From Myxococcales bacterium (lineage in GTDB: Bacteria; Myxococcota_A; Polyangia; Polyangiales; JAFGIB01): 64,000 nt of DNA. The notes below the pieces were generated by a model. It saw only the letters and a program-made list of their open reading frames with translations. It did no database searches and was not told the origin of the DNA. The stretch's first letter is position 1. The number at the start of each line of letters is the position of its first letter. Position numbers and translations under genes: made by a program. Positions 4,280 through 52,572 of this stretch are shown here, in pieces. Location: assembly GCA_029880325.1 (NCBI GenBank), contig JAOUOP010000018.1:58055-122054 (forward strand), written 5' to 3'.

Positions 4280-4356
4280 GATGGTGCTGTGTAGCGGCTC
4301 GTGGCCGCGGGGAGAACTGCGACCATCGTCGCAGGGGGGGCATGCGAGAGGCAGTA

Positions 4357-5103
4357 CTACTGCGACAGCTCAACTTGAAGTTCGAAACGCCCCACCCCCC
4401 GCTGCGCCGGCGGCTGCGCACTGCTGGCTACGATCGACAGCGCCTCACCGGCTGCCACCGCGATTTCAGCAATGCGCGCGCTGTCGCTTTTGCGGCCATC
4501 AAAGTCCCCATCGTCGCTGGCCGCGAGGCAGCCAAAGGGCAGTCGCTGGTGCTCGTGGCCCGCGGGATAGACCACGAGCAGCGGATCGGCGAGCGCGTCG
4601 GAGGACGGCTCGAGCATATCGGCGCCGCGCAAGATTAGCTCCAAGCGTCGCTCCCTCGGCGCCGCGCAAAGCCGGTAGCCACGGTAGGCCACCTCCACGT
4701 CGAGGACGGCTGTCGCCGGACACGCTGCGGGCACCTGGATCGGGAGCCAACGGGGCGACGCCTGCGTTAGCTGGCCGGTCACCACGCGCTGGCCCTCGCT
4801 GACCTCGAGACAATCGTCGAGGCGCCCGGTGGCCTGCCCGCCATCCTCGTCTTCATTCTCCAGGTCGCCACTGGCATCGACCGCTCCCGCTGCATCTGGC
4901 AGGCCACCGTCGCGTGCATTACCCGCGAGCGGGGCCGCAGCGTCTGGACCCTCGGTCGCCGAGTCCGAGGAAGCATCCGTAAGGTTGGGCCGCAATCGCC
5001 CGGCATCGACGAAGACCGTCTGCAACTCGACGGACTCGGGCACCGCGGAGCAGCCGCCCCCAGTTGCGAGCATCAATGGGATCAATGCGTAGAAACCGCG
5101 CAT
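4357..5103 (-). CDS. Secreted lipoprotein with a pre-peptidase C-terminal (PPC)-like tail
   Basis: ORF track 4357..5130. The likely start is MRGFYALIPLMLATGGGC (signal peptide plus lipobox) at 5103. An acidic low-complexity linker follows. The C-terminal part reads ..SDDGDFDGRKSDSARI..GRFELQVEL. Confidence 0.7.
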   Translation of the reverse strand: MRGFYALIPLMLATGGGCSAVPESVELQTVFVDAGRLRPNLTDASSDSATEGPDAAAPLAGNARDGGLPDAAGAVDASGDLENEDEDGGQATGRLDDCLEVSEGQRVVTGQLTQASPRWLPIQVPAACPATAVLDVEVAYRGYRLCAAPRERRLELILRGADMLEPSSDALADPLLVVYPAGHEHQRLPFGCLAASDDGDFDGRKSDSARIAEIAVAAGEALSIVASSAQPPAQRGVGRFELQVELSQ

Positions 5104-34462: not shown

Positions 34463-34487
34463 GGCTTCGTCTCCGGGTGACGGTGAG

Positions 34488-35378
34488 CTACAGCCCCTGC
34501 TCCAGACGGCGCTCCGAGAACTGACTCTCGGTAACGCTGGCCTGGTTGAACTTCATGGTGTTGGTCTCGAGCAGGGTCTGCGAATCCACCTTGCCGCCGC
34601 GCACGGTGCGCACGGCCAGACGCTTGGCGACCCAAATGCCGTCGATCTTTTCGAAGTTGCTGAACTTCATGTACTTCAGCTTCTTGCCCTCTTTGACCCA
34701 GGCCTTGACCTGTACAGGCATCAGCTTGCTCTTGCTGATCCAGGTGTGGGTCTTGACGTAGCCGGTCTCCTTCTTTTCCTTTTCGCTGCGCGGTCGCGCC
34801 TCCAGCAGCCAGCAGTCCTCGCCGTCGACCTTCACGCTCTGTTCGATGATCGCGTAGTCGTACTGCTCGGGGTCCTTCTTGGTCATGTCCGAATAGGTCA
34901 GGTCGGTGCCCATGAAGGAGCCGCTGCGGTCGGAGGTCGAGATGCGCGTGGACTTGTGCAGACTCGGCAAATAGAGCCACTGGTCGTCTTCTTTTTTGCC
35001 GTCGTCGAAGTCCACCGACAAAAGGCCCGTGTTGCGCACGTCGGCGGGGGCTTCGAAGAAGATGATGCTGCGGGTGCCCCCGTCGAACTTCAGGCTCTGC
35101 TGGTTGAGCTTGCGCACGCGCTTGCGACCGGCCGCATCCTGCAGCGTGAGGGTGACGCGCGAGACGATGCGGTCGCCGCTCTCGCGGTCCTCGACGGCCT
35201 TGGCGATGGCGCGGGCATCTTTGGTGTTGGGATCGAGCGCCAGAGCCGGCGCGGCCAGCGAAGAGAGCAGGCCGGCGCCCAGTGCCACGCGGGCGGCGGT
35301 GCCGCGCAAAAGTGCGCGTAGCAGGGGGAAGTTCGCTTGGGACGCAGGGAGCAGCTTGTGTAGGCGGTGATACGACAC
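34488..35378 (-). CDS. Outer-membrane lipoprotein-sorting (LolA-like) protein
   Basis: ..RSIIFFEAPADVRNTGLLSV..DDQWLYLPSLHKSTRISTSDRSGSFMGTDLTYSDM.. is the LolA_like family signature. It sits just downstream of an RND/MMPL gene, the usual pairing. Confidence 0.8.
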   Translation of the reverse strand: MSYHRLHKLLPASQANFPLLRALLRGTAARVALGAGLLSSLAAPALALDPNTKDARAIAKAVEDRESGDRIVSRVTLTLQDAAGRKRVRKLNQQSLKFDGGTRSIIFFEAPADVRNTGLLSVDFDDGKKEDDQWLYLPSLHKSTRISTSDRSGSFMGTDLTYSDMTKKDPEQYDYAIIEQSVKVDGEDCWLLEARPRSEKEKKETGYVKTHTWISKSKLMPVQVKAWVKEGKKLKYMKFSNFEKIDGIWVAKRLAVRTVRGGKVDSQTLLETNTMKFNQASVTESQFSERRLEQGL

Positions 35379-35408
35379 GTTTCGGTCCTCTCTGGAGATG
35401 CTCGGCTT

Positions 35409-38063: not shown

Positions 38064-38206
38064 CGGGAAGCCAAGGATGCGCCCGCTGTGTAGCGCAGTT
38101 CTTTTTTGGGGTCATACGCCGAATTGACGCAACCGGCGGGGGCCACTGGCCGATGAGTGAGAGGCAGCCGGGCAGCCACCTGCCCGCACGCCCAAGGAGA
38201 ACCGCC

Positions 38207-39031
38207 ATGCCCCACTTCCAAGCCCTGCGCGGCAGCGTCGCGCTCTATCTCTGCCTCCACGCCAGCGCCTGTGTCGACATCCCGCCAGAAACCCTCGAAC
38301 CGCTGGCGGAGTTGACGCGCGACGCCTCGATCTCGGTCAATCTCTCCATCGACGCCGGGGCCATGCGCCCGGCCGACGGCGATCCCTACACGGGGCCCGA
38401 GTGCGAGCCAGCGCCCACCCCCTCCGACGACGCCGCCGAAGGCGAAGGCGCCGCCGGAAACGACATGAGCCACGCCGATTCCGCGGGTGCCATGGACGCC
38501 GGCGCCGCGACGGGCGCCGAACCGGCTCCGCGCCCCTCGGCGCCCGGCCACCTGCTGATCACCGAGCTGATGCCGAATCCGGCGGCCGTGGCCGACACCG
38601 CTGGCGAGTGGATCGAGCTCTACAACCCGGGCGCAGAGGCCCTCGACGTGGCCGGCTGCCTGCTCGACGACGGTGGTAGCACCCGACGTCCACTGCCGGC
38701 CGGCACCACCATCGACGCCGGCGCCCACTTCCTGCTGGCGCGCTCGGAGCAATGCCCGGTGCCCCCCGATCTGGTCATCAGCTTCTCCCTGGGCAACAGC
38801 GCCGACCGCGTCGCGATTTTCTGCGACGGCATCGAGATCGACGCCGTGGCCTACGGCGAGGGCTTTCCGCTGAGCCCGGGCGTGAGCATGTCGCTCGATC
38901 CCGACGCCTACGACGCCGTGGACAACGACTTCGGCCAGGCCTACTGCCCCGGGCGCTTCGCCTACGCCATCGACCTGGGCACGCCCGGCGAACCCAACCC
39001 CAGCTGCGATACAGACGCCGACGCCGGTTGA
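38207..39031 (+). CDS. Lamin tail domain (LTD) lipoprotein
   Basis: The ATG at 38207 is preceded by AAGGAGAA. Signal plus lipobox ..VALYLCLHASAC. ..HLLITELMPNPAAVADTAGEWIELYNPG.. is the LTD signature. Confidence 0.8.
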   Translation: MPHFQALRGSVALYLCLHASACVDIPPETLEPLAELTRDASISVNLSIDAGAMRPADGDPYTGPECEPAPTPSDDAAEGEGAAGNDMSHADSAGAMDAGAATGAEPAPRPSAPGHLLITELMPNPAAVADTAGEWIELYNPGAEALDVAGCLLDDGGSTRRPLPAGTTIDAGAHFLLARSEQCPVPPDLVISFSLGNSADRVAIFCDGIEIDAVAYGEGFPLSPGVSMSLDPDAYDAVDNDFGQAYCPGRFAYAIDLGTPGEPNPSCDTDADAG

Positions 39032-39116
39032 ACGCGGCGGCGCTTTGCGGCCCGAGCCGAGCATGGCACATTGGGCGGGCGCGCTTCGGACATCAGCTCC
39101 CGAAGCGCCCCCGTCC

Positions 39117-39392
39117 ATGTCGCGCGCAGACAACGATAACGACGGCAGCGCCGGCTCCCGACCACCCGCAAGCGACACCGTGGGACGCTACGATCGCATC
39201 CCCGATGTGCGCGACGGCCTGACACGCATCGAGCGCGTGATCCTGTGGACCCTGGACCGCGCGCAAAAAGAGCGGGGCGGTCGCTACGTACCCACGGCCA
39301 TGCTCTACGGCCGCGTCGTCGAACACGTGAACATCAGCGTCGACGAATTCCAAAAGACGCTGGCACGGCTGACCGGTCGCGGCGGACTTTGA
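39117..39392 (+). CDS. Small ORF with a type IIA topoisomerase A-subunit (GyrA/ParC) N-terminal winged-helix-like signature. It is probably a truncated or interrupted gene.
   Basis: ..RIPDVRDGLTRIERVILWTLDRAQKERGGRYVPTAMLYGRVVEH.. resembles GyrA ..[33 protein letters not shown].. Its TGA stop (39390-39392) is the first three bases of repeat copy A. The start is uncertain (39045 or 39117). Confidence 0.45.
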   Translation: MSRADNDNDGSAGSRPPASDTVGRYDRIPDVRDGLTRIERVILWTLDRAQKERGGRYVPTAMLYGRVVEHVNISVDEFQKTLARLTGRGGL

Positions 39393-39448
39393 ATTAATCC
39401 GCCACCATCACCCACCGTCCGCCCCAGCCCCACGATCCCGCCGCCTTA
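39390..39448 (+). repeat. Repeat family copy A (59 bp, right-hand part only)
   Basis: tgaattaatccgccaccatcacccaccgtccgccccagccccacgatcccgccgcctta is identical to 49504-49562. It has 2 mismatches to 45181-45239. Confidence 0.9.
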
Positions 39449-39449
39449 G

Positions 39450-41545
39450 GGCTCGACCCTGTGGGCCGTGCAGGGGCCGGCCGACACCGGCAAGACCACC
39501 CTGATCCTGCATCTGGCTGCGAGCACATGCTCGAGCAGCTCGACGCCCTGGTCGACAAGGGCGAGATGGGCGATCGCCTGCTGCTGGTCGCCAGCACCAA
39601 CAACCGCGCCGTCGACAGTGTGGTCGAGCCCCTCGACCACACTGTCGACGGCCTGCCCATGGCCCTGCGTAGCGGCAGTCGCCAGGTCTGCCAGAAGGTC
39701 ACCACCGCCCAGCTGCGCAAGGCGCTGGCATGGCTGGCCCGCTCTCGACCCCGCGATCAGGCCGCCCGGACGCAGGCCAGCGAGCACTACGACCAGGCCG
39801 TGGACCGCTATCGCCGCCTGCGCGAGCAACTGATGCAGCAGGAACGACCGCGTGCGAAGGCCATGGAGGCGCGCCGGGCTGCCACCGTCGCCAAGACCCA
39901 GCTCGAGCGCTTCGACGCGGAGCTGCGCGTGCGAAAGCTGGACCCCGAGGCACCGTTGCCGGTCGAGAAGAAAGCCGACCTCGCCCGCCTGACATCGCTG
40001 CTGCTCGATCTGGATCGGCTCGAGGACATGGCCGGTCGCAATCCATCGAAGTCGGCCCTGCGCCGCCTCGAAAAAGCCCACCGAAGGTTTCTGACCGAGC
40101 ACGGGTCGGCGCTTCAGAGTTTGCGCGCGGCCGCTTCGGAAGGCGCGCCTTGGCCGCTGCCGCCCGTGTGCGACGACCGCGGTCAACCGGGAGCTTGCCT
40201 CAAGGCCTGGGAAGAGGCGATCGAGGTGGCCCTCGACCAGGCCGACGCCCTGCGCAGCGAGGTCGGCGAGCGGCTCGAGGTGCGGGAGCTACTGAAAGAA
40301 CGCCGCCGTTTGCACCACCGGGTCGAGGCGTGCCCCGACGAGGGCGAAGTGACGCCGCCGAGCGACGCGCTCGATCCCCTGCGCGTCGAGCTGCTGCAAA
40401 GCGGCCTCGAGCTGCGCGAACGCTGGGCCACGCTCCACGCCGAGTCGCTGTCGCAGGCGCTCGAGCTTGCCCTGGAGTGCGTCCAGAGCGAGCGCTCCAT
40501 GCGCACGCTCTTCCGTGCCGAGGCCGAAGCCGGGCGCTGGCTGCGTCAGCTCTGTGGCGTCTGGGGCTCGACGCTTTTGTCCATGGCCAACGCCGTGGTC
40601 GCCGAGTCACGTCACATCGAGCGCGTGGTCATCGACGAGGCCGGCCAGTGCCATCCGGCCCACGCCATCTCGGCGCTTCTGCGCGCACGCTCACCCCTGA
40701 TCATCGGCGATGTCCACCAGCTCGAGCCGGTCATCGAGCTGACCGCTTCCGACGAGCGCCGCGTGCGCCTGCAGGCGGGCCTGCGCCTGAGCGACCAAGA
40801 GCTCGCGCCCTACCGCGTGGGCTCCGAGAGCTCGAACTCCGTGCAGTCCCTGGCCTACCGCGCCTGCGGTGGCCCCCTGCGTTTGACCGACCACTTTCGC
40901 TGTCAGCCGTCGATCATCGCCATCTGCGATTCCATCTGCAACTACGGGTTGAAAGTTCACACGCCGCCCCAAAGCCGCGCGCGCGAGGCTCCCTTTTTGC
41001 ACTCACCGGTGCTCTTCGTGGACGTCGACGGGCGCCAGCAGCGGCTGGGGGGAAGCTGGACCAATCCCGCCGAACTCGAGCTTTGCATGCAGTGGCTGCA
41101 GGCGATCGTCGACGCCGGCGTCTCGGTCGACGACGTGGCCATCATCACGCCCTATCGCGGGCAGATCGAGCAGCTGCAGCGCGCCGTGGCCCGCCGCGGC
41201 ATCCGCATCGCCCGCGGCCTGGCCTTCGACCCCGTGGCCGACGAGCAGGTAAGCCTCTTTGGCGTCGAGCCCGAGCCGGCGGGCTTGACCCTGGGCACGG
41301 AGCATCGCTTTCAAGGCGGTGAGCGCAGCGTCGTGCTCTTCAGCAGTGTCGTCACCGATCCGCGCTCGCTCGGTTTCTTGAATGACCGCGTCAACCTGCT
41401 CAACGTCACCGTTTCCCGCACCCGCGAGCACCTGATCACGCTGGGGCACCGCCCGACGCTGGCCACGGGCCGCTACACCCGGCGCCTTCTGGGGTCGCCG
41501 GGGGCGCTCGAGCCGGCGTTCCCTGCGCTGCGGGGCGCTGGCTGA
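39450..41545 (+). pseudogene. SF1 (DNA2/NAM7-like, AAA_11/AAA_12) helicase, disrupted. It has an in-frame stop-bounded insert at its 5' side and a 1-nt frameshift after the Walker A motif.
   Basis: Walker A ..LWAVQGPADTGKTTLILHLAA lies in the frame of ORF 39468. The sequence continues in the frame of ORF 39461 as ..HMLEQLDALVDKGEMGDRLLLVASTNNRAVDSV.. Later motifs are VVIDEAGQC, IIGDVHQLEPV, DHFRCQPSI, ITPYRGQ, TEHRFQGGERSVV and VTVSRTREHL. Confidence 0.7.
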
Positions 41546-41681
41546 GCCGTCGCCAGGGCAGGTCGGGCCCTCGACTTTCAACGCTGCTTCCAACGGTCTT
41601 CCACACGGTCGGGGCCCAGGCTCATGACTGAGCGACGGCGCGCTGCCGCTCGCACCTTCCTCCCCGAAAGGAGAACCAGCC

Positions 41682-42098
41682 ATGAGCCTGAACGTGGACC
41701 TTTTGCAGAGCAGCTTCGACCTCGTGATGGAGCGGGAGCCCGAGCTCACCATTCGTTTCTACGAGCACCTGTTCGCCCGCCACCACGAGGTCGAGCCGCT
41801 CTTTTCCAGAAACAGCCGAGCCCAGCAGGCGCTGATGCTCGCGCGTGCGCTCGGCGCCGTCGTCGAGCACCTCGAAGATGCCAGCTGGCTCGAGCAGACC
41901 CTGAGCGTCATGGGCGCCCGCCACGTGGGCTACGGCGTGACCGAGGCGATGTACGACTGGGTCGGCGAGGCGCTGCTCGAGACGCTCGCGGAGGTGGCCG
42001 GCGATGCCTGGAGCGACGAACTGGCCGCGGCCTGGTCAGAGGCCTATGGCGCCATCGCCGGGTTGATGAAAGCCGGCGCCCAGCAAGCGGCGGCTTGA
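41682..42098 (+). CDS. Single-domain globin
   Basis: ..LLQSSFDLVMEREPELTIRFYEHLFARHHEVEPLFS.. and ..LSVMGARHVGYGVTEAMYDWVGEALLETL.. show the globin fold pattern with the proximal His context. AAAGGAGAA precedes the ATG. Confidence 0.8.
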   Translation: MSLNVDLLQSSFDLVMEREPELTIRFYEHLFARHHEVEPLFSRNSRAQQALMLARALGAVVEHLEDASWLEQTLSVMGARHVGYGVTEAMYDWVGEALLETLAEVAGDAWSDELAAAWSEAYGAIAGLMKAGAQQAAA

Positions 42099-42104
42099 GC
42101 GCCC

Positions 42105-42512
42105 TCAGCGAATGTCGTCGTCGTCGCCCAACTGACCGTTGGCACCGGCGGAGACCACGGTGGCTTCGCTTTCGTCGCACTCGATGTGGAAGGCGTTGCC
42201 CCAGGGGTCGACCGAGTTGGTGCGCCGCGAGAGGATGTCTTCCTTGACGAGCGTCTCGACGCTGGGGCACTCACTCCCGAACTCCAGCTGGTAGGCGGTG
42301 ACCGCCTGGCCAATGGTTCTGGCGTCGATGCGGGCCTGACGTACGCGGGCCCGCACCAGCGAGGGCATGATGGCAAAGCCGGCAGCCACCGCCACCATGG
42401 CCATGATCACCATCACGATCATGATCTCGATCAGCGTCATTCCCTGTTGCCTGCGCCGTCTGCGCTGTCTGCGCAGCCGTGCAGCGCGCAGGGTGATGTT
42501 GTTCTTTTGCAT
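42105..42512 (-). CDS. GspG-like type II secretion major pseudopilin (prepilin-type N-terminal cleavage/methylation domain), orphan
   Basis: The ATG at 42512 follows AAGGAGAG. The leader is MQKNNITLRAARLRRQRRRRRQQG, then MTLIEIMIVMVIMAMVAVAA with Glu at +5. ..DPWGNAFHIE..SAGANGQLGDDDDI matches the GspG C-terminal pattern. Confidence 0.8.
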   Translation of the reverse strand: MQKNNITLRAARLRRQRRRRRQQGMTLIEIMIVMVIMAMVAVAAGFAIMPSLVRARVRQARIDARTIGQAVTAYQLEFGSECPSVETLVKEDILSRRTNSVDPWGNAFHIECDESEATVVSAGANGQLGDDDDIR

Positions 42513-42810
42513 GGACTCTCCTTGGTCATCGCGCCGGAACGAAGTGCGTCCGGTCGCGTCGCCAAAGGTCCTTGCAGGGTGCGTGCCAGTGCTGTAGCGC
42601 AGTAAATCGCTACGTTGCCTTGCCGACCGCGGGCGTTCGCGCGTCACAATGCCCCGGTGCGTGCGCGTGCGCTTGCCAAAGCGTCGCAAGCGCCCCAGGG
42701 CGGGAAGTCCAGGCGCCGGGAGCGAGGCAGGAAAAAACGTCCTGGCAGCATTCGCTTCCGCATGGGCCATCCAGGTCGCACGCGCGGCGTCCAAGGGTTT
42801 GGACGGCTGT

Positions 42811-43365
42811 TCAGCGTCGGTCGGTGCGCTGTGGGAAGCGGGGAGCGCCTGCTTCGAGTTCCACCTGCGAGCCGTTTGCCAGGTAGGACACGGCGCGGTA
42901 CTGGCCCGCCAGCGCGAGTAGCTCGATGAGCTGCGCCTCGTCGAAGAACCGTCGCAAGCGCTGCCAAAGGGCGTCGTCCACCTGGGCGCTTGTGTGCAGC
43001 GCGTCGGCCAGCTCCACCACGAGCGCCTCTCGACCGTGCCAGTCGTCGGCGTTGCTGAGCACCGTGGCTGTGACTTCCTGCTCGGAAAGTTCCGCGGCTT
43101 CGGCGAAGAACGCCACGTGCACACCCCACTCGTACTCCGCGCGGCAAAGCGCTGTGGTTCGCAGGATCATGAGCTCGCGGGTCCTGAGGTCGATGCTGCC
43201 AGGGTCGAGCAGTCCGCCGCGGCGCAAACGCCCAAGCACGCGGGGGTTTTTCGCGACCGTCCGGAACAGTCCGATCGGTTCCATGCCGGGCGGCATCAAT
43301 TTTGCCAGGTCTTGCGCGACCTCGGACTCGTAGGGGGGGCGTGCGGGTTCGATTCGGGCTGCCAT
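42811..43365 (-). CDS. Carboxymuconolactone decarboxylase (AhpD-like) family protein
   Basis: ..LFRTVAKNPRVL.. and ..RELMILRTTALCRAEYEWGVHV.. The start is MAARIEP at 43365. Divergent from an HxlR regulator. Confidence 0.8.
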   Translation of the reverse strand: MAARIEPARPPYESEVAQDLAKLMPPGMEPIGLFRTVAKNPRVLGRLRRGGLLDPGSIDLRTRELMILRTTALCRAEYEWGVHVAFFAEAAELSEQEVTATVLSNADDWHGREALVVELADALHTSAQVDDALWQRLRRFFDEAQLIELLALAGQYRAVSYLANGSQVELEAGAPRFPQRTDRR

Positions 43366-43405
43366 GTTCGTCGCCTTTCGCGGTCGCTGTTTTGCCAAGG
43401 AATGT

Positions 43406-43453
43406 GCTACTGTTTTCGTAGCAACCCGATGGTAGCGCTACGGTTTTAGTAGC
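43406..43453. promoter_or_regulatory. Two GCTAC-N7-GTAGC inverted repeats, candidate HxlR operators
   Basis: GCTAC(43406-10) tgttttc GTAGC(43418-22) and GCTAC(43437-41) ggtttta GTAGC(43449-53), 31 bp apart. The central GTAGCGCTAC (43432-41) is a perfect palindrome. They lie in the 110-bp CMD/HxlR divergent intergenic region. Confidence 0.5.
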
Positions 43454-43457
43454 GCAA

Positions 43458-43772
43458 GTGCAAGCGGAGGTTCGGATGGCTCCTGTTGCCAAGCGACCGA
43501 TCATGGAACTGCTCGACCTTCTCGGGCGGCGTTGGACACTGCGCGTGCTATGGGAACTCAGGGGCGAGTCGCTGACGTTCCGCGGACTTCAGTCTGCCTG
43601 CGACGAGATCTCGCCCAGCGTTCTCAACGCGCGGCTGTCGGAGCTGCGGGAGGCAGGGCTTGTGGAAGCGATGGAGGCAGGCTACCGGCTGAGCCCGATG
43701 GGGCGACAGCTCGGTGAGCTATTGCTTCCTCTCGATGCCTGGGCCAAACGCTGGGTCAAACGTCGGGCTTGA
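43458..43772 (+). CDS. HxlR-family transcriptional regulator
   Basis: ..LDLLGRRWTLRVLWELRGESLTFRGLQSACDEISPSVLNARLSELREAGLV.. The likely real start is the ATG at 43476, preceded by GGAGG. Confidence 0.9.
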   Translation: MQAEVRMAPVAKRPIMELLDLLGRRWTLRVLWELRGESLTFRGLQSACDEISPSVLNARLSELREAGLVEAMEAGYRLSPMGRQLGELLLPLDAWAKRWVKRRA

Positions 43773-43922
43773 AGCGCGGCCGGGCGCGGTGCAATCCCGC
43801 GACCGTTCGCATCCGCGTGTTGCACCGGCTGTCGAAGTCGATGGCTCGAAGCGCGCCGGGCGGCAAGGTCATCGCGGTCCGGTGTGGGGTCTTTGGTTGC
43901 CGCTGGAACTCCGCTATGCTCG

Positions 43923-44120
43923 ATGGTCATGCGGGGACTCAGCTGGGCCGGGTGGCTTTTCGTTGTTGTGATTGCGTGTGGGGACGACGCCAGCAGCGCG
44001 GGTGCGGGCTCCGACATGGATGCTTCGCTCGACGCGGAGGCAACGGCACCGGGGCGCTCCGCCGAGGGGCAGAGCTGCGGCGGGGTGAGCAGTAGCTTCG
44101 GGATCACCTGTTGCATCTGA
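43923..44120 (+). CDS. Possible small lipoprotein
   Basis: MVMRGLSWAGWLFVVVIACGDD (lipobox VIAC), ending ..GITCCI. It is short and I recognise no homology, so the call is weak. Confidence 0.35.
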   Translation: MVMRGLSWAGWLFVVVIACGDDASSAGAGSDMDASLDAEATAPGRSAEGQSCGGVSSSFGITCCI

Positions 44121-44196
44121 GCGGGTGGTTGGCGGTCAGGCAGGGCGTCACCGGGACCGTTGTGCACGGGCTCTGCGGAAGTGCGCCCCGCAGCCG

Positions 44197-44805
44197 CTAT
44201 CGCGCGAGCCCTTCGAGGGCGATTTCGCCCGACGCGATGCGCTGCAGGGTCTCGACCAGGAAGGCGTGCTCCCGCGCTTGCACGCGTGCGGTGAGGGTCT
44301 CGACCGTGTCGGTTTTTTCCACTGGCACGGGCGTTTGGGCGAGCACTGCGCCGTGGTCGTAGATCTCATCGATCAGGTGCACGCTGATGCCGGTTTCGGT
44401 CTCGCCGGCCTCGAGTACGGCGCGGTGCACGTGCTGTCCGTACATGCCCTGGCCGCCGAACTTCGGCAGCAGCGCGGGATGGGTGTTGAGGATGCGACCG
44501 CGGTAGGCGGCGACCGTGCGTGGGCCCAGTAGCTTCATGTAGCCAAGCAGCAGCAGCACCTGGACCTGGCGGTCCTGCAGCGCTTCGAGGATGGCCTCGT
44601 CGCGGACGCGGTCGTCGGCGAAGCGCGGGCCTCCGATGTGTTGGCACGGGACGCCGTGCTCGCGAGCGAAGGCCAGGACGCCGCTCTTTTTGTTGTTGCT
44701 GATGATGAGGCCGATGCGGGCGTCGAGACGGCCGTCACGGCAGGCCTGGGCGACGGCCCGGGTGTTGCTGCCTTGATGGGAGGCGAGGATCCCGAACGTG
44801 AGCAT
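44197..44805 (-). CDS. purN: Phosphoribosylglycinamide formyltransferase
   Basis: ..GILASHQGSN.., ..LLLGYMKLL.., ..ILNTHPALLPKFGGQGMYG..VH.., ..GISVHLIDEIYDHG.. Confidence 0.9.
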   Translation of the reverse strand: MLTFGILASHQGSNTRAVAQACRDGRLDARIGLIISNNKKSGVLAFAREHGVPCQHIGGPRFADDRVRDEAILEALQDRQVQVLLLLGYMKLLGPRTVAAYRGRILNTHPALLPKFGGQGMYGQHVHRAVLEAGETETGISVHLIDEIYDHGAVLAQTPVPVEKTDTVETLTARVQAREHAFLVETLQRIASGEIALEGLAR

Positions 44806-44862
44806 GGCGAATGTGGTGCACCATGCCGTGGTGCTTCGGCAAGTGGCTTTCCGATCTCGAGC

Positions 44863-45075
44863 CTACAACGGTGTGCAGTCGCTGGGCGGCACGTTGAACC
44901 AGCGTTCGAGCACGGTGCGCGCCTGGATCGGCATCGCCATGTTCTGGGGCATTTCGCCGAGCAACATGCGCTGGCGGGCCACCCACCACATGGGTTGTCC
45001 CGTGGCGTACCACAAGGAGGGCTGGAGAAAGTCGGAGGTCAGGGTGAGCCGCGGGGCGTCGATGGCGGGAAAGTC
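44863..45075 (-). pseudogene. C-terminal fragment (about 70 codons) of an unidentified gene, 5'-truncated at repeat copy B
   Basis: ..DDFPAIDAPRLTLTSDFLQPSLWYATGQPMWWVARQRMLLGEMPQNMAMPIQARTVLERWFNVPP.. has coding-like GC3. The only in-frame start lies inside the repeat, and the same MTGPIDPLLMLPTD artefact occurs at copy C. Confidence 0.45.
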
Positions 45076-45239
45076 GTCCGTAGGTAGCATTAGAAGGGGG
45101 TCAATTGGGCCAGTCACCGCACCGGGGAGGAGTTGACATAAGAGACACTACTGCGAAGTACGACAGCAATGAATTAATCCGCCACCATCACCGACCGTCC
45201 GCCCCAGCCCCACGATCCCGCCACCTTACAGCACGGCGG
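45076..45239 (+). repeat. Repeat family copy B (164 bp)
   Basis: gtccgtaggtagcattagaagggggtcaattgggccagtcaccgcac..ccttacagcacggcgg. It has 6 mismatches to copy C by hand alignment. Confidence 0.9.
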
Positions 45240-46855
45240 CTCGGGCGTGACCGTGGGCGCGGCCCTGCAGTTTCCGCTCGGTCATGCCGACGTGATGGAG
45301 CTGGAGCGTTCGGTGGTGGACGCCTCGCGCTTCTTCGCCGACGTCAACCATCTGCACTACACGCTGCCGGACTACCCCTACATCGAAGAGCCGCGCCTGA
45401 CGCTGCACAACGACGACGGGCGAAACTTCCTGGCCGCCAGCGAGCAGAGCTACGACGTCATTATCAGCGAGCCGAGCAACCCGTGGATCACGGGCGTCTC
45501 CGACCTCTTCACCGTCGATCATTTTCGGGTAGCCAAGAAGCGCCTGGCTAAAGATGGCATCTACTGCCAGTGGGTCCAGCTCTACGAGATGAGCCCGCGC
45601 AACGTGAAGATCATCTACCGGACCTTCGCTTCGCAGTTCAAATACGTGGTGGTCTTCTCGGCCGAGGATCTCTCCAGCGACACCATCCTGATGGGCTCGG
45701 ACTCGCCCCTGCCCCTGGATCTCGGCCGCCTTCGCCGGGCCTTTGCCGAGCCGGGCGTGGTTGCCGAGCTCGAGCGCGCCTACATCCACTCGCCCTACGA
45801 CGTGCTGGCGCGGGTGCTGCTCTCGGACCGCGACGAGGTGATGCGCTTCACCCACATCGAGCACCGCAAGGACAAGAAAACCGGCCGCATCAAAGCCATC
45901 CCCGAAGCCACCAACGCCGAAGACTGCCGGCCGCCGGGCTGCCGTCGCGAGCCCTTGCCCCTGAACACCGACGACAACGCGCTCATCGAATTCGCCGCCC
46001 CGCGGGACGTCATCGGCTTCGATGCGCTACCGCGGCTACTTGCGCACCGTCTACCACCACGAGTGGCCCTACGGCCGCCTGCAGGACAAGCTCATCGGTC
46101 CCAACTGAAAGTCAGAAGACGTGGCCGAGCAGGCCATCGCGCTGCTGGCCCATGGCCGCACGCGTGAGGCCGGTGCGCTTGTGGCCATGCTGCCGCCTGC
46201 GGCCGGTGGCGGCCTGCGCGCCAAGGCCGAGACCAAGGCTTTCGCCCCTGCGGCATCCCCCATCGAGCAGGCCCACGCCATCTGGGGCGTACTGGGCGAT
46301 GAGCCGAACACGCCCAAGGTCAGCTTCCCGCCGCCCACGCCAGAGCACCTCGACCCTGAGCTCGACGCCGCCACCAGGCGCCAGCTCAGCCGCGGCCACG
46401 CCGAGGCCCTCGACTGGCTGCACCGTGGCGAGCCCAAGCGCGCGGTCACAGCCCTGAGCGCCCTACCCAGCGCCCTGTTGCAACACGCGGGCGCGCCCAT
46501 GGGCTACCTGCGGGGCTACCTGCACTACCGGGCCGGCCAGTACGACGAAGCCATCGACACCCTCGAAGCCACGCTGCAGGCCGATCCTGCCTTTGCCCTC
46601 GAGCACCCCGCCCTCTACTTCTTCCTGGCGCGCTCCCACGACGCCCTGATGCACTTCGACAAGGCCGTGCGCAACGCCCAAGTCTACATCGAAGCCGCAC
46701 CGCTGTGGGCGGGCGGTGCGGACGACGAGGCACAGCCGGAACCGCCCCCGAACGCCGCACCGATCAGCGATGAAGCGGGCGAGACGCTGAAGCAGTTTCA
46801 TTCCGACCGCGCTGGCGCCGTGGCGGAGGCATCCGGACACGCGCAAGCACCATGA
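45240..46855 (+). pseudogene. Spermidine-synthase-like (fused SpeE-type) gene with a TPR-like C-terminal region. It is 5'-truncated, frameshifted near 46020, and has an in-frame TGA at 46106.
   Basis: ..SGVTVGAALQFPL..DVMELERSVVDASRFF..YDVIISEPSNPWITGVSDLFTVDHF..GIYCQWVQLYEM.. The N-terminal membrane part is missing. The frame moves from ORF 45247 to the frame of ORF 46121 (..RYRGYLRTVYHHEWPYGRLQDKLIGPN*), then continues as ..AEQAIALLAHGR.. Confidence 0.6.
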
Positions 46856-46959
46856 TGTGAGCAAGCTGGGCATCGTGATGCCCGCGTGCGCGCCATCACG
46901 GCGATGTCCTCGGCCGGCCCAGGCCGATCAATGGCGACCCGCGACGTGGGCAGCAACTC

Positions 46960-48948
46960 TCACGGATGCCCGGCTGGGTTCAGCTCACGACAACCGGGCA
47001 GGTCCTCCCAGCGGGCCAGCTCCGAACGCAGTCGAAGCATCTCCTGGGGCTGCTGGAGCGCAAGATTGACGCGTTCGCCGGGATCGCTTTCCAAGTCGTA
47101 GAGGTAGTTGAGGTTGTCGTCGAGGTTGACGATCAACTTGTAGCGCTGGCTCATCACCGCCAGCTGGGCGGGCAGCCCCACGCCTCCCCAATGATCGACG
47201 GCGATCAGCTGACTGACAACGGGGAGCTGCGAGGGAAGCGCCGGTCCGAGCAGGTCACGGCCCTGAAAGCCTTCCCGCTGCGGCAGACCGAGATAGGCCA
47301 AGAGCGTCGGAACGACGTCGACGAGTGAGACGGGGTCCGTAATCACGCGCGCTGAAACCCCGGGCAGCCGCATGTAAAGCGGAACCCGCAGCGCTTCCTC
47401 GTACAGCGAGCCGCCGTGGTAACGGCTTCCGTGTTCGCCGAACTCCTCGCCGTGATCACTGAGCATGATCACGACTGCGGCCCGCCCGCGCTCGCTCTGT
47501 TCGAGTTCTGCGACAAGGCGTCCCAGGTGCATCAACACGTGGCGAATCTGTGTGCGATAGCGCTCCTGCTGCGTCAGTCCCTCGAGCCAGGGCGCGTAGG
47601 GCGCGTGAGCGTCGAGAAAGTGAAGCCAGCGCATGCGCGGCGGCCCGGAGGCCCCGGAGCGGGCCTCCTCGATGGCCCAGTCGACCAGCCGCGCGGTCGC
47701 ACCACGCAGGGCCACGACGTCGCAGTCGTCCTGAAAGGGCGAGCGCTCCCGGGACAAGCCGAGCACCTGCTTTCCCTGATGTGCCGAGCCCTTGTGCTGG
47801 TGGATCCAAATGTCGGCGTCGTAGCCGGCCGCGTCCATCAGTTCGAAGACGCTGGGATGCCCGAGGCCCGTGTACCGAAGGTAGCGCGACTGCGCCATGG
47901 CGAGCATCGCGCGATAGGTCTCGGGATAGGGCGTGTACGCGCGTGCAAAGTCCACGGTCCCGCGCTTCCAGCGCGCGAAGTCGGGCACCTCCCGCAAGTC
48001 CAGCCCACCCCAATCGGCACGAACTGTGTCCGTCACCAGCAGATACACATCGGGAAGCGGAGCGCGCGGGGCGGGCCGACGCGCGGGGACCACGGGCGCA
48101 GTCGCCCTGCTGAGGCCGTTGCAGTTGCGGTCGACCGGGTCCGGCAGTTCGCAGCGCCCTGGAGCGATCTCCGGGTCTCCATCGTCGCAGTCGGTTCCGG
48201 CGAAGGTGCCCGCGTGGCCGTCGCGATCGAGGTCGAGCAATAGGCGCATGGTGGCCAGCAGCTGGGGCTGGAGCATGCCGTGGGCGTCGCCCAGCACGCG
48301 GACCTCTCGTACCTGGCTGCCGAGGGAGAGGTGACTGGCCAGGCCCACGGCCGCCAACGCGCCCAGGCGCCGCCAGCTGGCCCTGAGGGTCCAGTCCCAA
48401 AGCGTACAGGCCCCCAGGATCATGGCGGCGAAGCCGGCCAGGTCGTGCAAGGTCGCGTAAAGACGCCGTAGCACGAAGGCGTCCGCCAACAGACACGACA
48501 GCGCGGCGACCAGGCACAGCGCCCGAAACAAGGGCGCCCCGAGCCCACCGCGGATGCTGGCGAGGAGAACACCTGTGACGCCGCTGGCGGTCGGCACCAC
48601 CAGCGCAAGTCGGTAGGGATCGTCGGCGAGATTCCAGGGCCGCAGGATCAGTACGCCCACCCCGCCAGCGGCAGCACCGATCGCCGAGCCCAACAACAGT
48701 CGCCACAGCCACGAGCCCCTTCGCGGAGCCCATAGCGGCAAAAATAGGCGCCAGGGCAAGCTCACGCACGCGGCCGCAAGTCCGCTCACCCAAAGGGCCT
48801 CGGCCAGCAGGCTCAGCCCGTAGCGAACGAGCAACCCGCTGGGCTCGCCGATGCGCAGGCCCACGACAGCGAGTTCCACCGGGGCCAGCAGCAGGCAAGT
48901 GGCGAAGCCGACCGCCCAGGCGCGGGCGAGCATGACCGGAAGTGTCAC
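46960..48948 (-). CDS. Membrane-anchored sulfatase / alkaline-phosphatase-superfamily protein
   Basis: Multi-TM N-terminal half. DCDDGDPEIAPGRCELPDPVDRNCNG is the myxobacterial putative metal-binding motif. Sulfatase core: ..VYLLVTDTVRADWGG.., ..WLHFLDAHAPY.., ..IMLSDHGEEFGEHG.. Confidence 0.8.
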   Translation of the reverse strand: MTLPVMLARAWAVGFATCLLLAPVELAVVGLRIGEPSGLLVRYGLSLLAEALWVSGLAAACVSLPWRLFLPLWAPRRGSWLWRLLLGSAIGAAAGGVGVLILRPWNLADDPYRLALVVPTASGVTGVLLASIRGGLGAPLFRALCLVAALSCLLADAFVLRRLYATLHDLAGFAAMILGACTLWDWTLRASWRRLGALAAVGLASHLSLGSQVREVRVLGDAHGMLQPQLLATMRLLLDLDRDGHAGTFAGTDCDDGDPEIAPGRCELPDPVDRNCNGLSRATAPVVPARRPAPRAPLPDVYLLVTDTVRADWGGLDLREVPDFARWKRGTVDFARAYTPYPETYRAMLAMAQSRYLRYTGLGHPSVFELMDAAGYDADIWIHQHKGSAHQGKQVLGLSRERSPFQDDCDVVALRGATARLVDWAIEEARSGASGPPRMRWLHFLDAHAPYAPWLEGLTQQERYRTQIRHVLMHLGRLVAELEQSERGRAAVVIMLSDHGEEFGEHGSRYHGGSLYEEALRVPLYMRLPGVSARVITDPVSLVDVVPTLLAYLGLPQREGFQGRDLLGPALPSQLPVVSQLIAVDHWGGVGLPAQLAVMSQRYKLIVNLDDNLNYLYDLESDPGERVNLALQQPQEMLRLRSELARWEDLPGCRELNPAGHP

Positions 48949-49230
48949 GATTCCGAAACGCCGTCCATTCGGCCGCTGTTCGCACAGGCCGAACCCGTGT
49001 TCCCGCCCCAGCGTAGCGGCTCAGCACGGCGACGGGAAGCGATCCATAGGTCGCCGCGTGGACAGCTCCGCATGGCTCGACGAACCCAGACACCCATTGC
49101 AGCACCATGGCCAGTTCACCCGGCTGCCCGAAGCCCACCGTGCGCACCGATGCATCGCCAGCTCCAGGGCCACCTGCTCCTAACACAACCATCTTGCTCT
49201 TTCCTTGGCGGACGGCCATCGCCATGCCCC

Positions 49231-49398
49231 ATGAGCGACGACATCGCCAGCAACCTGGCCGACAACCTGCGCGCCCTGCGCGAGGCGCGCGGCTTCAGTC
49301 AGCAGCAGATCGCCAAGCTGGCCGGGCTGCCACGGCCTACCTGGGCCAACCTGGAGAGCGGCTCTGCCAACCCCACAATCGCGGTGCTGACGCGGGCA
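49231..49398 (+). pseudogene. XRE-family HTH regulator, 3'-truncated by repeat copy C
   Basis: MSDDIASNLADNLRALREARGFSQQQIAKLAGLPRPTWANLESGSANPTIAVLTRA is followed immediately by repeat sequence and a stop. It ends inside the usual HTH domain. Confidence 0.7.
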
Positions 49399-49562
49399 GT
49401 CCGTAGGTAGCATTAGAAGGGGGTCAATTGGGCCAGTCACCGCACTGGGGAGGAGTTGACATAAAAACCACTACTGCGAAGTACGACAGCAATGAATTAA
49501 TCCGCCACCATCACCCACCGTCCGCCCCAGCCCCACGATCCCGCCGCCTTACAGCACGGCGG
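49399..49562 (+). repeat. Repeat family copy C (164 bp)
   Basis: See copy B. It lies between the truncated XRE gene and the 3' side of the IS91-family transposase remnant. Confidence 0.9.
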
Positions 49563-49573
49563 AACGCATTAGC

Positions 49574-49610
49574 CAAAAAAGCAAAAACGTCCCAATCAAG
49601 GGACTTTTCC
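49574..49610 (-). terminator. Possible intrinsic terminator downstream of the IS91-family tnpA remnant
   Basis: The minus strand reads ggaaaaGTCCCttgattGGGACgtttttgcttttttgg: a short stem (5 bp, extendable with one bulge) followed by a T-rich tract. Confidence 0.4.
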
Positions 49611-49702
49611 GCCCCAAGAACGCCCCCCCCCCCACCCAGGCCTCGCTCCCGCAGCGCCCAGCTCACCACACGCCTGTCCGCCCATCGAGTCGGCCCTGGC
49701 CC

Positions 49703-50147
49703 TCAAGCCGACTCGAGGTCGAGCCACTCGTTTCCCGGCGGCGGCCGTGCCGGTGCGATCGGCAGCGGCTCGGTCGGCAACTTCAGGCTCTTGAGGATGC
49801 GGCGAATCGCATCCGGCTTGAACACAGCAGCCAACAGCCGCCTCGGCCCCTTGCAGCTTGGACAAATCAGCACGTCGGTCTTGAACGCTCGGCGCATCAA
49901 GTCCGCATAGCTGTAGCCCCCCTGCGCCCGCTCACCGCCGCCTTCCGGCACAGGCGGCTCCGAGCCGAGATCCTCCTCGGCGTCGCCGCGCTCCGCAGCC
50001 GGCCTCGCCTGCGCCCGGTAGGCGACGACGCGCGCCCGCAGCGCCGAGCGCGGTGCCAGTACGCCGCGGGAGACCAGCGAATTTTTGTGCGGCCGAGGAA
50101 TTAACGCCGCCAGGCGCTCGACGAACGCAAGCGGCTCGAATTCGACA
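49703..50147 (-). pseudogene. IS91-family transposase, C-terminal fragment only
   Basis: My translation gives ..VEFEPLAFVERLAALIPRPHKNSLVSRGVLAPRSALRARVV..GYSYADLMRRAFKTDVLICPSCKGPRRLLAAVFKPDAIRRILKSLKLPTEPLPIAPARPPP.., the typical IS91/IS801 C-terminus. Its 5' side is cut by the ISKra4-like IS at 50148. Confidence 0.75.
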
Positions 50148-51867
50148 GGGTGCGGCTCCTTTCATGCGACGTTTTTCACGAGTCGGAGGCGTCGTCTACG
50201 GGTGGGCGGGGCAATTTCTGGAACCTTCGAGTCAATGTAACGTGACAGGTGGTTGCGGTAGGTCTCCTGTTGCTCGTGAAAGGCCCAGTATTCGTCGAAA
50301 TCACCGCTGGAGAGGATCGAACGCAGGCGCAGGACGGCTTCGGCACCCTCGAGACTCCAACGCGCGCCAGTGAGGTCCATGCGGTCCTTGATCAAGTGCC
50401 GACAGGCGCCTTCGATGACGCCGGTAGCGATCGGTGCTCCCATCGCGAGCAGCTGTTCGTAGCGCATCATGGACTTGCGCTTCAGCAGATAGTTTGCGGC
50501 TTGGTCTACGGGCTTGCGCTGCTTGGCGCTCAATTCACGGAAGGTCGCCATGCGAGTCATGCCGGCCACCACTTGGCTGACTTCGCCCTGAAGAATGCGT
50601 CGCAAGCGCTCGAGAACCCAGTCCTCGATCTCGGATGTCCCTTCATCAAAGAAGACGTGCGCCGCACGCCACAGATATTCGAGGGCATGGATGAAATCGA
50701 GCACCAGTGTGACCTCGACTCCCCGACGCTGGGCCTCGGCGCGCACCAGCTCGATGAGCTTGTCATCGCCATCGACCAGGACCAGCCAGCGCTTTCGGTG
50801 CTTGGGGTCACGGTCGGCGGCTTCATCGAACGCGTCAGAGATCACATCCTTGAGCGGCCGCTGCAAGCTCGCCCACACCCGCTTGCCTTCGGGTCTGGGT
50901 TTGGGCTTCGTGATGGCGTCGCGCACTCGCCTGAGACCCGCGATCACGTCGTCGGCCGTCCTTTCGTGCGGTGCCACCGTGTAGACCGCCGCCACCGATG
51001 CTCGGCGTTTGCGCCCGCGCTTGACTTCGCCCTTGCTGCGCCGACTGTCCATCTTCGGCCTCGCCTCTTGCGCCGCCTTGCGGGTCGCGTCGGTCAAGTC
51101 CTCGTGACGTAGCACGACCCCCTTTTGGTCAAAGGTCAGCGCCAGCAATTCACTGGTCGGTTCCGGAAAGTGAAGTCGGGTGTTGCCGCAGAAGGCGTCG
51201 AAGTCAACTGCTGAGCGCTTCACCGACTGTTCGGCCTGACGCTTCGGAACATGGGCCGCGTTATGCACCGCCATCATCTCCAGCGTCGCGTCAAACGACA
51301 TGCGCAAGGCGCCCAGTGCCACCTGACGGTCTACTTCCAGCGAGTATCTCGTCGAGCCAAGTCCCAGAGCAGCATCGACCGGGAACAGGTACGACAGGCC
51401 ACGTCCTGAGTGACCCGTGCGCTCCACCTCCACAGTCCCGAAAACCGTCTCGAGCTTGCGCACCATGCCGCTGCGCTTATGGGTGCGCTCTCGAGCGTCA
51501 GCACCCACGACCGGCTGTGTCGCTCGGGCCTGACTGCGCAACGTAAGATAGGCTTGGTGCAGCCGACGCATCAGCTCAGCGCTGCTCGTTCGACAGCCAT
51601 CGCTCAATCTCCGCTTCGCTCTTGGTGCCAAGCTCATCGGACATCAGCGCCTTCTTCATCGAAGCGAATTGCGCCTCCGCCTCGACGAAATGTTCCTCTT
51701 CACCGAGCGCCTCGTTGCGGTAGGCTGCCCTCATGGGGTCACCTCCTGGGTAGATAGTTGTCTCTTCAACTTCTAGATACCCCGGAGGAGCCCCATTTTC
51801 ATCCTTGCACGACGCTCAACCGCTTGAAATTGTTGGCTTTCGGCGTCGCATCAACGGATCCGCACCC
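50148..51867 (-). mobile_element. ISKra4-family insertion sequence (about 1.72 kb) with 24-bp imperfect terminal inverted repeats
   Basis: The left end is gggtgcggctcctttcatgcgacg (50148-50171). The reverse complement of the right end (51844-51867) is gggtgcggatccgttgatgcgacg, matching 21/24. No direct repeat was seen in the flanks. Confidence 0.8.
50162..51734 (-). CDS. ISKra4-family transposase, apparently split by a 1-nt frameshift near 51576-51590
   Basis: Track ORF 50162..51637 contains ..LTFDQKGVVLR.., ..RGRKRRASVAAVYTV.., ..WLVLVDGDDK.., ..VLDFIHALEYLW.. and ..PIATGVIEGACRHLIKDRMDLTGARWSLEGAEAVLRLRS..GDFDEYWAFH.. An unlisted 52-codon ORF (51734..51576) has the strong RBS AGGAGGTGA and ends ..SEAEIERWLSNEQR*. 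It would join ..ELMRRLHQAYLTLR.. if one nt were removed. Confidence 0.8.
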
Positions 51868-51894
51868 CTTTGATAGAGCGAGCCCGAAGCCTCC

Positions 51895-52572
51895 ATGAAG
51901 AAAGCCGACAAAGCCGCGCGCATCGCGGAGATGCTCGACAAACTCTACCCCACGACACCGATCCCGCTCGATCACAGCGACGCCTTCACACTGCTGGTGG
52001 CGGTGATGCTCAGCGCCCAGACCACCGACAAGAAGGTCAACGAAGTCACGCCCGCGCTGTTCGCCATCGCGGGCAGCGCAGAGCAGATGGCCGCGCGCAG
52101 CGTCGACGAGCTGCTCGCCAAAATCCGCGTGCTCGGCCTGGCGCCGACCAAGGCCAAAAACCTCAAGGCCATGGCCCAGCAGTTGATGGGCGAGCACGGG
52201 GGCGAGGTGCCGAGCGACGAAGCGGCTCTCGAGGCGCTGCCCGGCGTCGGCCACAAGACCGCCTCGGTGGTGCGCGCCCAGGCCTTCGGCATCGCCGCCT
52301 TCCCGGTCGACACCCACATTCACCGGCTGGCCGCGCGCTGGGGGCTGTCGTCGGGCAAGAACGTGGAGCAGACCGAACGCGACCTGAAGCAGCTCTTTCC
52401 GCGCGAGGCCTGGAATCGACTGCACCTGCAGATCATCTACTTCGGCCGCGAACACTGCCCGGCGCGCGGTCACGATCTGGCAAAGTGCCCCATCTGCGGC
52501 TGGGCGGCGACCAAGCTCCGGATTCGCGAAGAGGCCGCGACGCGGGGGCCGCGGGCGCGCGCTGCGCAATAG
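51895..52572 (+). CDS. nth: Endonuclease III
   Basis: ..LLVAVMLSAQTTDKKVN.., HhH-GPD ..LPGVGHKTASVV.., ..VDTHIHRLA.., and the 4Fe-4S cluster C-x6-C-x2-C-x5-C at the C-terminus (CPARGHDLAKCPIC). Confidence 0.95.
   Translation: MKKADKAARIAEMLDKLYPTTPIPLDHSDAFTLLVAVMLSAQTTDKKVNEVTPALFAIAGSAEQMAARSVDELLAKIRVLGLAPTKAKNLKAMAQQLMGEHGGEVPSDEAALEALPGVGHKTASVVRAQAFGIAAFPVDTHIHRLAARWGLSSGKNVEQTERDLKQLFPREAWNRLHLQIIYFGREHCPARGHDLAKCPICGWAATKLRIREEAATRGPRARAAQ

Follow-up and report, generated by a model that had tools for sequence, protein, structure and literature searches.

A 164-nt non-coding repeat family in a Myxococcales bacterium, very probably mobile, with copies next to IS91-like remnants

The repeat unit and its copies

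The window considered here, a 64,000-nt stretch of a Myxococcales bacterium (contig JAOUOP010000018.1), carries between its 39 and 50 kb positions a short repeat unit of 164 nt, found as copies A, B and C next to truncated genes and, in the case of C, next to the remnant of an IS91-like insertion sequence (IS). Copies B (45076-45239) and C (49399-49562), both on the minus strand, are direct repeats that look like complete miniature elements with both ends; they are identical at 158 of 164 positions (96%), with mismatches at unit positions 48, 67, 69, 70, 118 and 148, in agreement with the six differences claimed by the first-pass annotation, which had been made from the letters of this DNA. 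With a profile of the family, nhmmer returned B with E = 3.6e-22, and it recovered 12 full and 4 partial copies overall, those in the window being only A, B and C. A 23-mer of the unit occurs three times in the window and a 36-mer twice, while shuffled sequences are expected to contain 0.00, so that chance is excluded; the G+C content of the unit is 59%, against ~68% for the genome.

As for copy A (39390-39448, 59 nt, minus strand), its orientation is that of B and C, as stated earlier, but it is not the right-hand end of the unit, nor is it identical to 49504-49562, as had been proposed: it matches 49493-49551 (unit positions 95-153), with the last 11 nt absent, and is therefore an internal segment. 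Missing from it are the whole left half, where the ori end is, and the outermost 11 nt on the ter side; together with the following G (39390-39449) it forms an in-frame block of 60 nt that begins with TGA and ends with TAG.

Regarding its anatomy, the unit is read in the polarity of the transposase remnant that adjoins C (the minus strand of the window), from which the names of its ends are borrowed. In this direction it runs 5'-CCGCCGTGCTGTAAGGCGGCGG ... CTAATGCTACCTACGGA-3', and the family consensus is 5'-CCGCCGTGCTGTA(A/G)GGCGGCGG ... CTAATG-N6-CCTACGGN-3'. The ter-like end is marked by a GC-rich palindrome, CCGCCG-N10-CGGCGG, that begins at the first base in all full copies (45218-45239 in B, 49541-49562 in C); it resembles the ter end of IS91 in architecture only, known terIS sequences being no part of the comparison. 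The ori-like end, CTAATGCTACCTACGGA in C (49399-49416; 45076-45093 in B), is not palindromic, and the two ends are thus unlike each other. The absence of terminal inverted repeats noted in the first-pass annotation held, since no repeat was found beyond a subterminal motif of 6/7 nt (CCGTAGG / CCTACAG). The base 3' of the ori-like ...CCTACGGN is C at all 11 junctions (CC in 6, CG in 3, CT in 2), and the commonest reading of the tetranucleotide is GTCC; the base preceding the ter-like end varies among copies. No direct repeats indicative of a target duplication were seen beside any of the ~11 copies, none of which has demonstrably contiguous flanks or an empty site.

The unit has no conserved open reading frame (ORF), as already noticed from the letters: the sole frame that is fully open alters the amino acid at all six B/C differences. 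Similarly, the earlier statement that it has no tRNA structure was upheld by a scan for tRNA and tmRNA, while Rfam gave no match window-wide, nor in 38500-52500 at E <= 1. The folding check suggested in the first-pass annotation showed that neither strand of the unit folds better than shuffled sequence, with z-scores of -0.3 to -0.9. The TTGACA hexamer pointed out earlier is present on the plus strand, but it has no matching -10, and promoter scoring gave nothing sigma-70-like within the unit; the hexamer reads TTTACA in a related copy (L083, see below). The core of the 164-nt type includes a terminator-like hairpin, CATTGCTGTCG-TACTT-CGCAGTAGTG, followed by TTTTTAT (49468-49495 in C, minus strand); its T-run is degenerate in B and reaches 8 T in the L083 copy, where the structure is strongest. 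On the basis of the Rfam, tRNA, folding, promoter and IS-end checks, the unit was rejected as a structured RNA, a tRNA-derived attachment (att) site, a promoter cassette or the end of an ISKra4 element, and the lack of an Rfam match in 38500-52500 at E <= 1 led to the rejection of a group II intron or retroelement fragment as well.

Relatives in other contigs

A 20-mer of the unit matched two JGI contigs, L083 and L084, from one sample (Ga0224501); they come from a related organism, at about 87% identity, and the repeats in common with the window are 82-97% identical. L083 has one copy of the 164-nt type (~90% identical) and six units of 113 nt, and L084 has three units of 113 nt plus three partial copies. 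Aligned on the plus strand with B and C, the 113-nt units (at least 9 in the two contigs) match them over ~15 nt at the start (G-N-CCGTAGG...) and ~40 nt at the finish (CCCCA.CCCCRCGATYCCGCCGCCYTACAGCACGGCGG), while the cores of the two types do not align with each other, so that conservation is limited to the ends; structure prediction gives a weak hairpin at the non-palindromic end of the 113-nt type, and none there in the 164-nt type. The 113-nt units are found in either orientation, in contexts that have no relation to one another, and one of the three in L084 adjoins a 5'-truncated ORF for an ABC-2-like permease. In L083, units are strung head to tail in arrays that repeat at exactly 113 nt, with nothing in between. 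Among the partial copies of L084, one (2053-2129) has no palindromic end and keeps the ori-like end with GTCC, and another (4993-5027) is a solo copy of the 35-nt palindromic end.

L084 also holds the 3' part of a group II intron (4352-4673; Rfam RF00029, 46 bits at 4573-4673) inside a unit of the 164-nt type; its 3' exon is the palindromic half of that unit, and its 5' part is replaced by an oppositely oriented 113-nt unit. The intron is a separate insertion into a unit, the core of which therefore served as an intron homing site in this relative.

Other collections gave no further copies: an exact-pattern scan with a 21-mer of the unit on one genome per species (GTDB) had no match, three unit patterns found only chance 17-mer matches with no further similarity among viral contigs, and a plasmid collection had no match for the unit with the IS91 3' region (DNA) or for the transposase fragment (protein). 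The unit family is not known to have been described before, and so far it is known from a few metagenome contigs.

The IS91-like remnant beside copy C

Copy C is followed directly by the 3' remnant of an IS91/ISCR-like transposase gene of the HUH Y2 type (49563-50147, minus strand), which consists of about the last 150 codons (49706-50147) and of a 3' region of 140 nt. The protein matched NCBIfam ISCR_clade_Ia with E = 3.6e-16 over profile positions 371-486 of 509, and its homologues carry PF04986 (Y2_Tnp); its score of 59 bits is far under the cut-off of 925 bits, and the remnant is therefore only a distant relative within the IS91 superfamily. The closest relative, with 80% identity (P0001/P0012), is on the 65.8-kb contig that carries MDH5675097.1. 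The 3' region contains a perfect subterminal hairpin, GTCCC-TTGATT-GGGAC (49589-49604; also written GTCCC-AATCAA-GGGAC), flanked by an A-rich stretch and, on the opposite side, by TTTT; there is also an 11-nt poly-C run (49627-49637), and both this run and the hairpin are kept in the two copies of L083.

In the IS91 family, oriIS lies 3' of tnpA (PMC13181058), so that unit C adjoins the ori side of the remnant. The junction has no spacer, and the same position of the IS91-like 3' end is joined in the same way in the relative: the window reads ...GGCTAATGCGTT|CCGCCGTG, and L083 reads ...GGCTAATGGGCC|CCGCCGTG twice. These three junctions carry three different unit types or cores, each with its ter-like end against the IS91-like 3' end, and they represent all three remnants that have a visible ori end, which is a small sample. 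All four IS91-like copies seen are 3' fragments that share the ori end and differ in their 5' cut points, the two in L083 being cut differently.

The 5' part of the IS91-like gene of the window is removed, at 50147, by a complete IS of the ISKra4 family (50148-51867, minus strand), with terminal inverted repeats of 24 nt and a transposase (50165-51637; NF033572, E = 1e-89, 301 bits); no target duplication is visible for this IS. A metagenome contig identical to this part of the window (ENA k141_936366) ends inside it, at window position 50288, and the IS is therefore probably multi-copy.

Flanking genes

The first-pass annotation had stated that every copy abuts a broken gene, and this proved only partly right: three truncations are solid (the SpeE-TPR, XRE and helicase genes), one is plausible (left of B), and one claimed break, the small ORF at A, is wrong because this ORF is intact.

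At the right of B, a gene described earlier as SpeE-like and 5'-truncated is indeed so. This pseudogene (45240-46855, plus strand) encodes a fusion of major facilitator superfamily (MFS), spermidine synthase and TPR domains, begins at the very boundary of B on its ter-like side and carries a frameshift near 46024; the ORF 45247-46167 and the "TPR" ORF 46121-46855 are one gene in the homologues (P0164, P0165). The cut is inside motif I for S-adenosylmethionine (SAM), where ...ATCATCGGTCTCGGC|TCGGGCGTGACC in the relative L092 corresponds to ...CAGCACGGCGGC|TCGGGCGTGACC in the window; the L092 homologue has at least 285 more N-terminal codons, which encode a membrane domain. In three relatives the gene lies in a conserved neighbourhood, CNNM-sigma70-[gene]-gap-pgk-tpi, and none of these neighbours is in the 64-kb window, so that the fragment is outside its conserved context, as expected for one that was carried along or relocated. 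The three relatives are long-read-style ENA contigs (L092, L093 and L094) with the order CNNM/CBS, sigma-70, MFS/SpeE/TPR, gap, pgk, tpi and K+ transporter; many genes of this neighbourhood are split into pieces there, probably by the indel errors of long reads.

To the left of B, an orphan ORF fragment of 71 codons (44863-45075, minus strand) adjoins the ori-like end; its GC3 of 0.90 is coding-like, homologues were not found, and it is plausibly a gene remnant. The ATG of the CTAATG motif of the unit (45088-45090, minus strand) is in frame with this ORF and is taken as its start codon by gene callers; the element may therefore supply a start codon to a truncated gene.

At C, the XRE-type helix-turn-helix (HTH) gene (49231-49398, plus strand) is 3'-truncated in the last helix at the ori-like end; it covers positions 1-43 of 55 of the HTH_3 profile and then continues into the unit, in line with the earlier remark that it is cut mid-domain.

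At A, the picture given earlier, of a break between a small ORF and a helicase, stood for one side only. The helicase pseudogene (39450-41545, plus strand), of superfamily 1 with AAA_11/AAA_12 domains, is 5'-truncated, with the Walker A motif 10 codons after the remnant; it has a -1 frameshift at about 39521, and once this is repaired the AAA_11 score is 65 bits instead of 43.5, while a PDB search with its N-terminus was uninformative. The small gene (39117-39392, plus strand), instead, encodes an intact protein of 91 aa, and its TGA stop is the first triplet of A. This protein belongs to a stand-alone family of 80-110 aa, with 376 matches among representatives at 50% identity, whose members end at the same point; the idea of a single gene composed of the small ORF and the helicase and split by A was rejected accordingly. 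The protein is winged-helix-like, and its widespread family is covered by no Pfam or NCBIfam model.

At none of the three copies are the flanks the two parts of a single gene, and no flank pair matches; therefore later rearrangement, capture of gene fragments and assembly mis-joins are all possible sources of the flanks. No synteny was found with the best PurN relative among species-representative genomes (a Myxococcales metagenome-assembled genome, 73% identity); the source of the window is thus an uncultured organism, Myxococcota-like and represented solely by metagenome assemblies from short reads. The frameshifts at ~39521 and ~46024 lead gene callers to split or shorten the genes and to report normal proteins, such as products of 306 and 244 aa.

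A possible miniature element of IS91 type

With only the ends conserved, and with copies that are dispersed, nested and arrayed, the clear reading of the 164-nt repeat is a small, non-coding, non-autonomous mobile element, and this is very probably what it is. The first-pass annotation had inferred the terminal segment of a mobile element or a recombination scar; the mobile nature agrees with the present data and the word scar fits A, which is an internal remnant without either end, whereas B and C look complete. It had also considered that only three copies might exist, with no link to a transposase; units occur in other genomes and contigs, and they adjoin an IS91/ISCR-like remnant at three junctions.

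The further assignment, that the units are miniature rolling-circle elements of the IS91 family moved in trans, has about an even chance of being correct. Members of this family have no inverted repeats and produce no target duplication; their target tetranucleotide lies beside oriIS only, GTCC being among the known targets, and a single GC-rich subterminal palindrome marks the cleavage site at terIS (PMC13181058). The mobile DNA found here would then be a family of a known element kind, newly seen, with an IS91-type transposase as its likely driver. There remains a small probability that C is not a separate unit but the contiguous end of the neighbouring IS91-like element.

Whereas the anatomy of the unit, its family, dispersal and arrays, its contact with the IS91-like remnant and the truncated genes are observations, the transposase, the direction of movement and the capture step are inferred, as follows. 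An IS91-family HUH Y2 transposase supplied in trans would carry out single-strand rolling-circle transposition: it would nick at the ori-like ...CCTACGGN end, replication or displacement would proceed to the palindromic ter-like end, and the strand would be pasted beside a short target without duplicating it. This target would remain next to the ori end, and the junction at a resident ori end could be struck again, which would account both for the head-to-tail arrays and for units being found repeatedly against the ori end of IS91-like elements. The XRE gene would have been interrupted by such an insertion, and so would, at some locus, the genes for SpeE-TPR and the helicase. As for the history of C, an IS91-like element may have entered the XRE gene, followed by unit C between its ori end and the XRE stump, and the far side would have been lost with the ISKra4 event. 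The mismatched flanks of B and A could derive from read-through at the ter end that carried a gene fragment, in an ISCR- or Helitron-like capture, from recombination or deletion between copies, or from mis-joins. An autonomous IS91-like element of this lineage would be expected to carry CCGCCGTGCTGTARGGCGGCGG upstream of tnpA and ...CCTACGGN downstream.

Taking this one step further, the units could be a bacterial counterpart of non-autonomous Helitrons, which keep the ter and ori ends, form arrays via a re-used target and relocate gene fragments (here the 3' parts of SpeE-TPR and helicase) by ter read-through; this is a tentative proposal, and a doubtful one as a whole.

Several observations weigh against the IS91 assignment. 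No full-length IS91-like element of the lineage is among the available copies, which are all 3' remnants with the ter end missing. The IS91-like ori end shares with the units only CTAATG and is without the terminal ..ACCTACGG, and derivation of the unit core from the IS91 3' region was rejected (score of 20 against 16.7 +/- 2.5 for shuffles). The abutment to IS91-like ends amounts to three junctions in two genomes, two of them on one contig; no empty site was found, so that mobility and duplication-free insertion are not directly demonstrated, and the conserved C, or GNC, may belong to the element and not to the target. The shuffle-level folding of the unit counts on the same side, as does the finding that CACGGCG, a pseudo-ter motif where the SpeE-TPR fragment ends, is not above chance; matches of this sort are frequent in this GC-rich DNA. 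Lastly, the distant IS91-like 3' ends L095, L096 and L097 have no significant unit-like segment. In L095, from another sample, two strings that recall the unit ends, CTCCGTGCTG...GATCGGG and GGCTAAGCGCCTATCG, lie ~150 nt apart (630-800) downstream of a 45%-identical IS91-like gene; this candidate was dropped, with a pairwise z of about 4.4, 1 of 200 shuffles scoring higher and nothing from nhmmer, and nothing was found in L096 and L097.

Alternative explanations

A different reading of the flanks is that the unit is real and that the pattern of gene break points is at least partly due to mis-joined flanks in a short-read metagenome assembly, the units being in reality simple insertions into the SpeE-TPR gene, the XRE gene and others. 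The window from 34197 to 50288 is 100% identical to the MEGAHIT-type contig k141_936366 (108 kb), and a Logan contig (SRR7132593) stops exactly 30 nt into B, which denotes a branch of the graph as expected with k = 31; moreover, gene halves on both sides are absent at all three copies, as mis-joining at a multi-copy repeat predicts. Conversely, two assemblies, the 108-kb ENA contig and the 124-kb contig, concur across the three copies; B and C differ at six spread sites and can therefore be told apart by 141-mers; similar truncated flanks occur in the independent JGI assembly of the relative; and the SpeE-TPR and helicase fragments bear extra frameshifts, the former being outside its ancestral neighbourhood on both sides. 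Taken together, mis-joining is somewhat unlikely as the source of the pattern. A change of enzyme, with the units being REP/REPIN-like or IS200/IS605-derived (PATE) hairpin elements, was judged unlikely: a Y1 HUH enzyme (RAYT/TnpA) would be located elsewhere, and the IS91-like element would merely prefer a palindromic end, a behaviour with some precedent in that some insertion sequences target REP hairpins. The conserved end of ~35 nt is palindromic and GC-rich, its loop carrying GTAG or GTAA, the other end has CCGTAGG, the palindromic end exists alone at L084 4993-5027, and REP/PATE families likewise show neither inverted repeats nor target duplications, a short target being fixed at one of their ends. 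Yet only one end of the unit is a clear palindrome, the unit is not a long REPIN-like hairpin (z from -0.3 to -0.9), its copies lie against or inside coding sequence and not solely between genes, and its arrays are head-to-tail and not inverted pairs; no Y1 transposase was seen beside any copy, the rest of the window not having been scanned for one.

Explanations that dispense with transposition fare worse. It is very improbable that the copies are att-site duplications around a 4.2-kb island, or segmental duplications by homologous recombination, even if two direct repeats of 164 bp flank a segment of 4.16 kb, A, B and C are all in one orientation and an empty site was not found: the ORFs between or beside the copies include no integrase, there is no tRNA or tmRNA, the genes are cut exactly at the unit boundary, and in another genome the same ends enclose an unrelated core and are found in either orientation, tandemly arrayed and amid contexts that are not related. 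That the unit is a functional non-coding RNA or a regulatory cassette with promoter and terminator, duplicated for its usefulness, is scarcely credible; it would make sense of TTGACA on the plus strand, of the terminator-like hairpin with its T-run on the minus strand and of a second hairpin with A- and T-runs just right of C, but it conflicts with the results of Rfam (none at E <= 1), of folding (shuffle level) and of promoter scoring (no sigma-70-like promoter), and with the lack of conservation of TTGACA in the L083 copy, the degenerate T-run of B and the lack of compensatory variation.

Comparison with known elements

If the units belong to the IS91 family, their closest counterparts are the natural miniatures of IS801 (229, 360 and 679 nt), which have a common ori end (PMC3189936), and the laboratory construct mini-IS91, which transposes with 89 bp of the ter end and 82 bp of the ori end (PMC13181058). 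Like the units, these are very short, gene-less and without inverted repeats; they make no target duplication and are moved in trans, as may hold for the units too, a total of ~170 bp being sufficient. Their ori end is constant and lies by a short conserved flank, while a GC-rich palindrome or a tetranucleotide distinguishes the opposite end. The partial copy at L084 2053-2129, ter-truncated with the ori-like end kept, resembles the IS801 miniatures in particular. The differences are that the latter are contiguous 3' pieces of the IS, while the 113- and 164-nt cores resemble neither one another nor the 3' region of the neighbouring IS91-like remnant, and that the unit ends are not matched to the ends of an autonomous element. 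To our knowledge, head-to-tail arrays of such miniatures are not described for IS91.

ISCR elements and Helitrons share with the units the rolling-circle reading, the unlike ends and the hairpin near the terminating end; non-autonomous Helitrons have only the termini in common with the autonomous element. In these systems, read-through of the terminating end carries flanking genes, and a similar capture may have moved the SpeE-TPR and helicase fragments. The likeness to ISCR concerns the transposase remnant beside C, which scores best against ISCR_clade_Ia, the unit ends not having been set against ISCR/Helitron consensus ends.

REP/REPIN elements and PATEs are, like the units, short, multi-copy and non-coding, with a GC-rich palindrome, a GTAG-like motif and no inverted repeats; they make no target duplication, none being visible in the units, and are moved on single strands by an HUH enzyme, as the units may be. 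PATEs have subterminal hairpins at both ends; the remnant beside C is of the Y2 (IS91-like) type, and not Y1. The units also differ in the single palindromic end, the absence of a long hairpin, the adjacency to coding sequence and the head-to-tail arrays. The unit was not assigned to the RAYT-associated REP/REPIN class, given its fold and its copies that cut coding sequence, a genome-wide RAYT not having been looked for. Finally, the classical MITEs (miniature transposable elements with inverted repeats) of bacteria, such as MITEPsy1, Correia and RUP, are comparable in their 100-170 bp, multiple copies, lack of ORF and disruption of genes; they have terminal inverted repeats and target-site duplications, neither of which is seen in the units, and this class was rejected as well.

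Conclusions

In conclusion, the 164-nt unit enlarges the known range of bacterial mobile DNA to a modest extent; it is a genome parasite of an ordinary sort and opens no long-standing question. Its consequences for the lineage are practical: the unit breaks genes, it probably breaks or misleads metagenome assemblies, and several "genes" in the 39-50 kb region of the window are pseudogenes that annotation pipelines call intact. If the IS91 assignment is true, the family would be a natural and amplifying one of gene-less IS91-type elements, where such miniatures have so far been mainly IS801 fragments and laboratory mini-IS constructs, and it would offer a simple account of the head-to-tail arrays at ori ends and of the relocated gene fragments.

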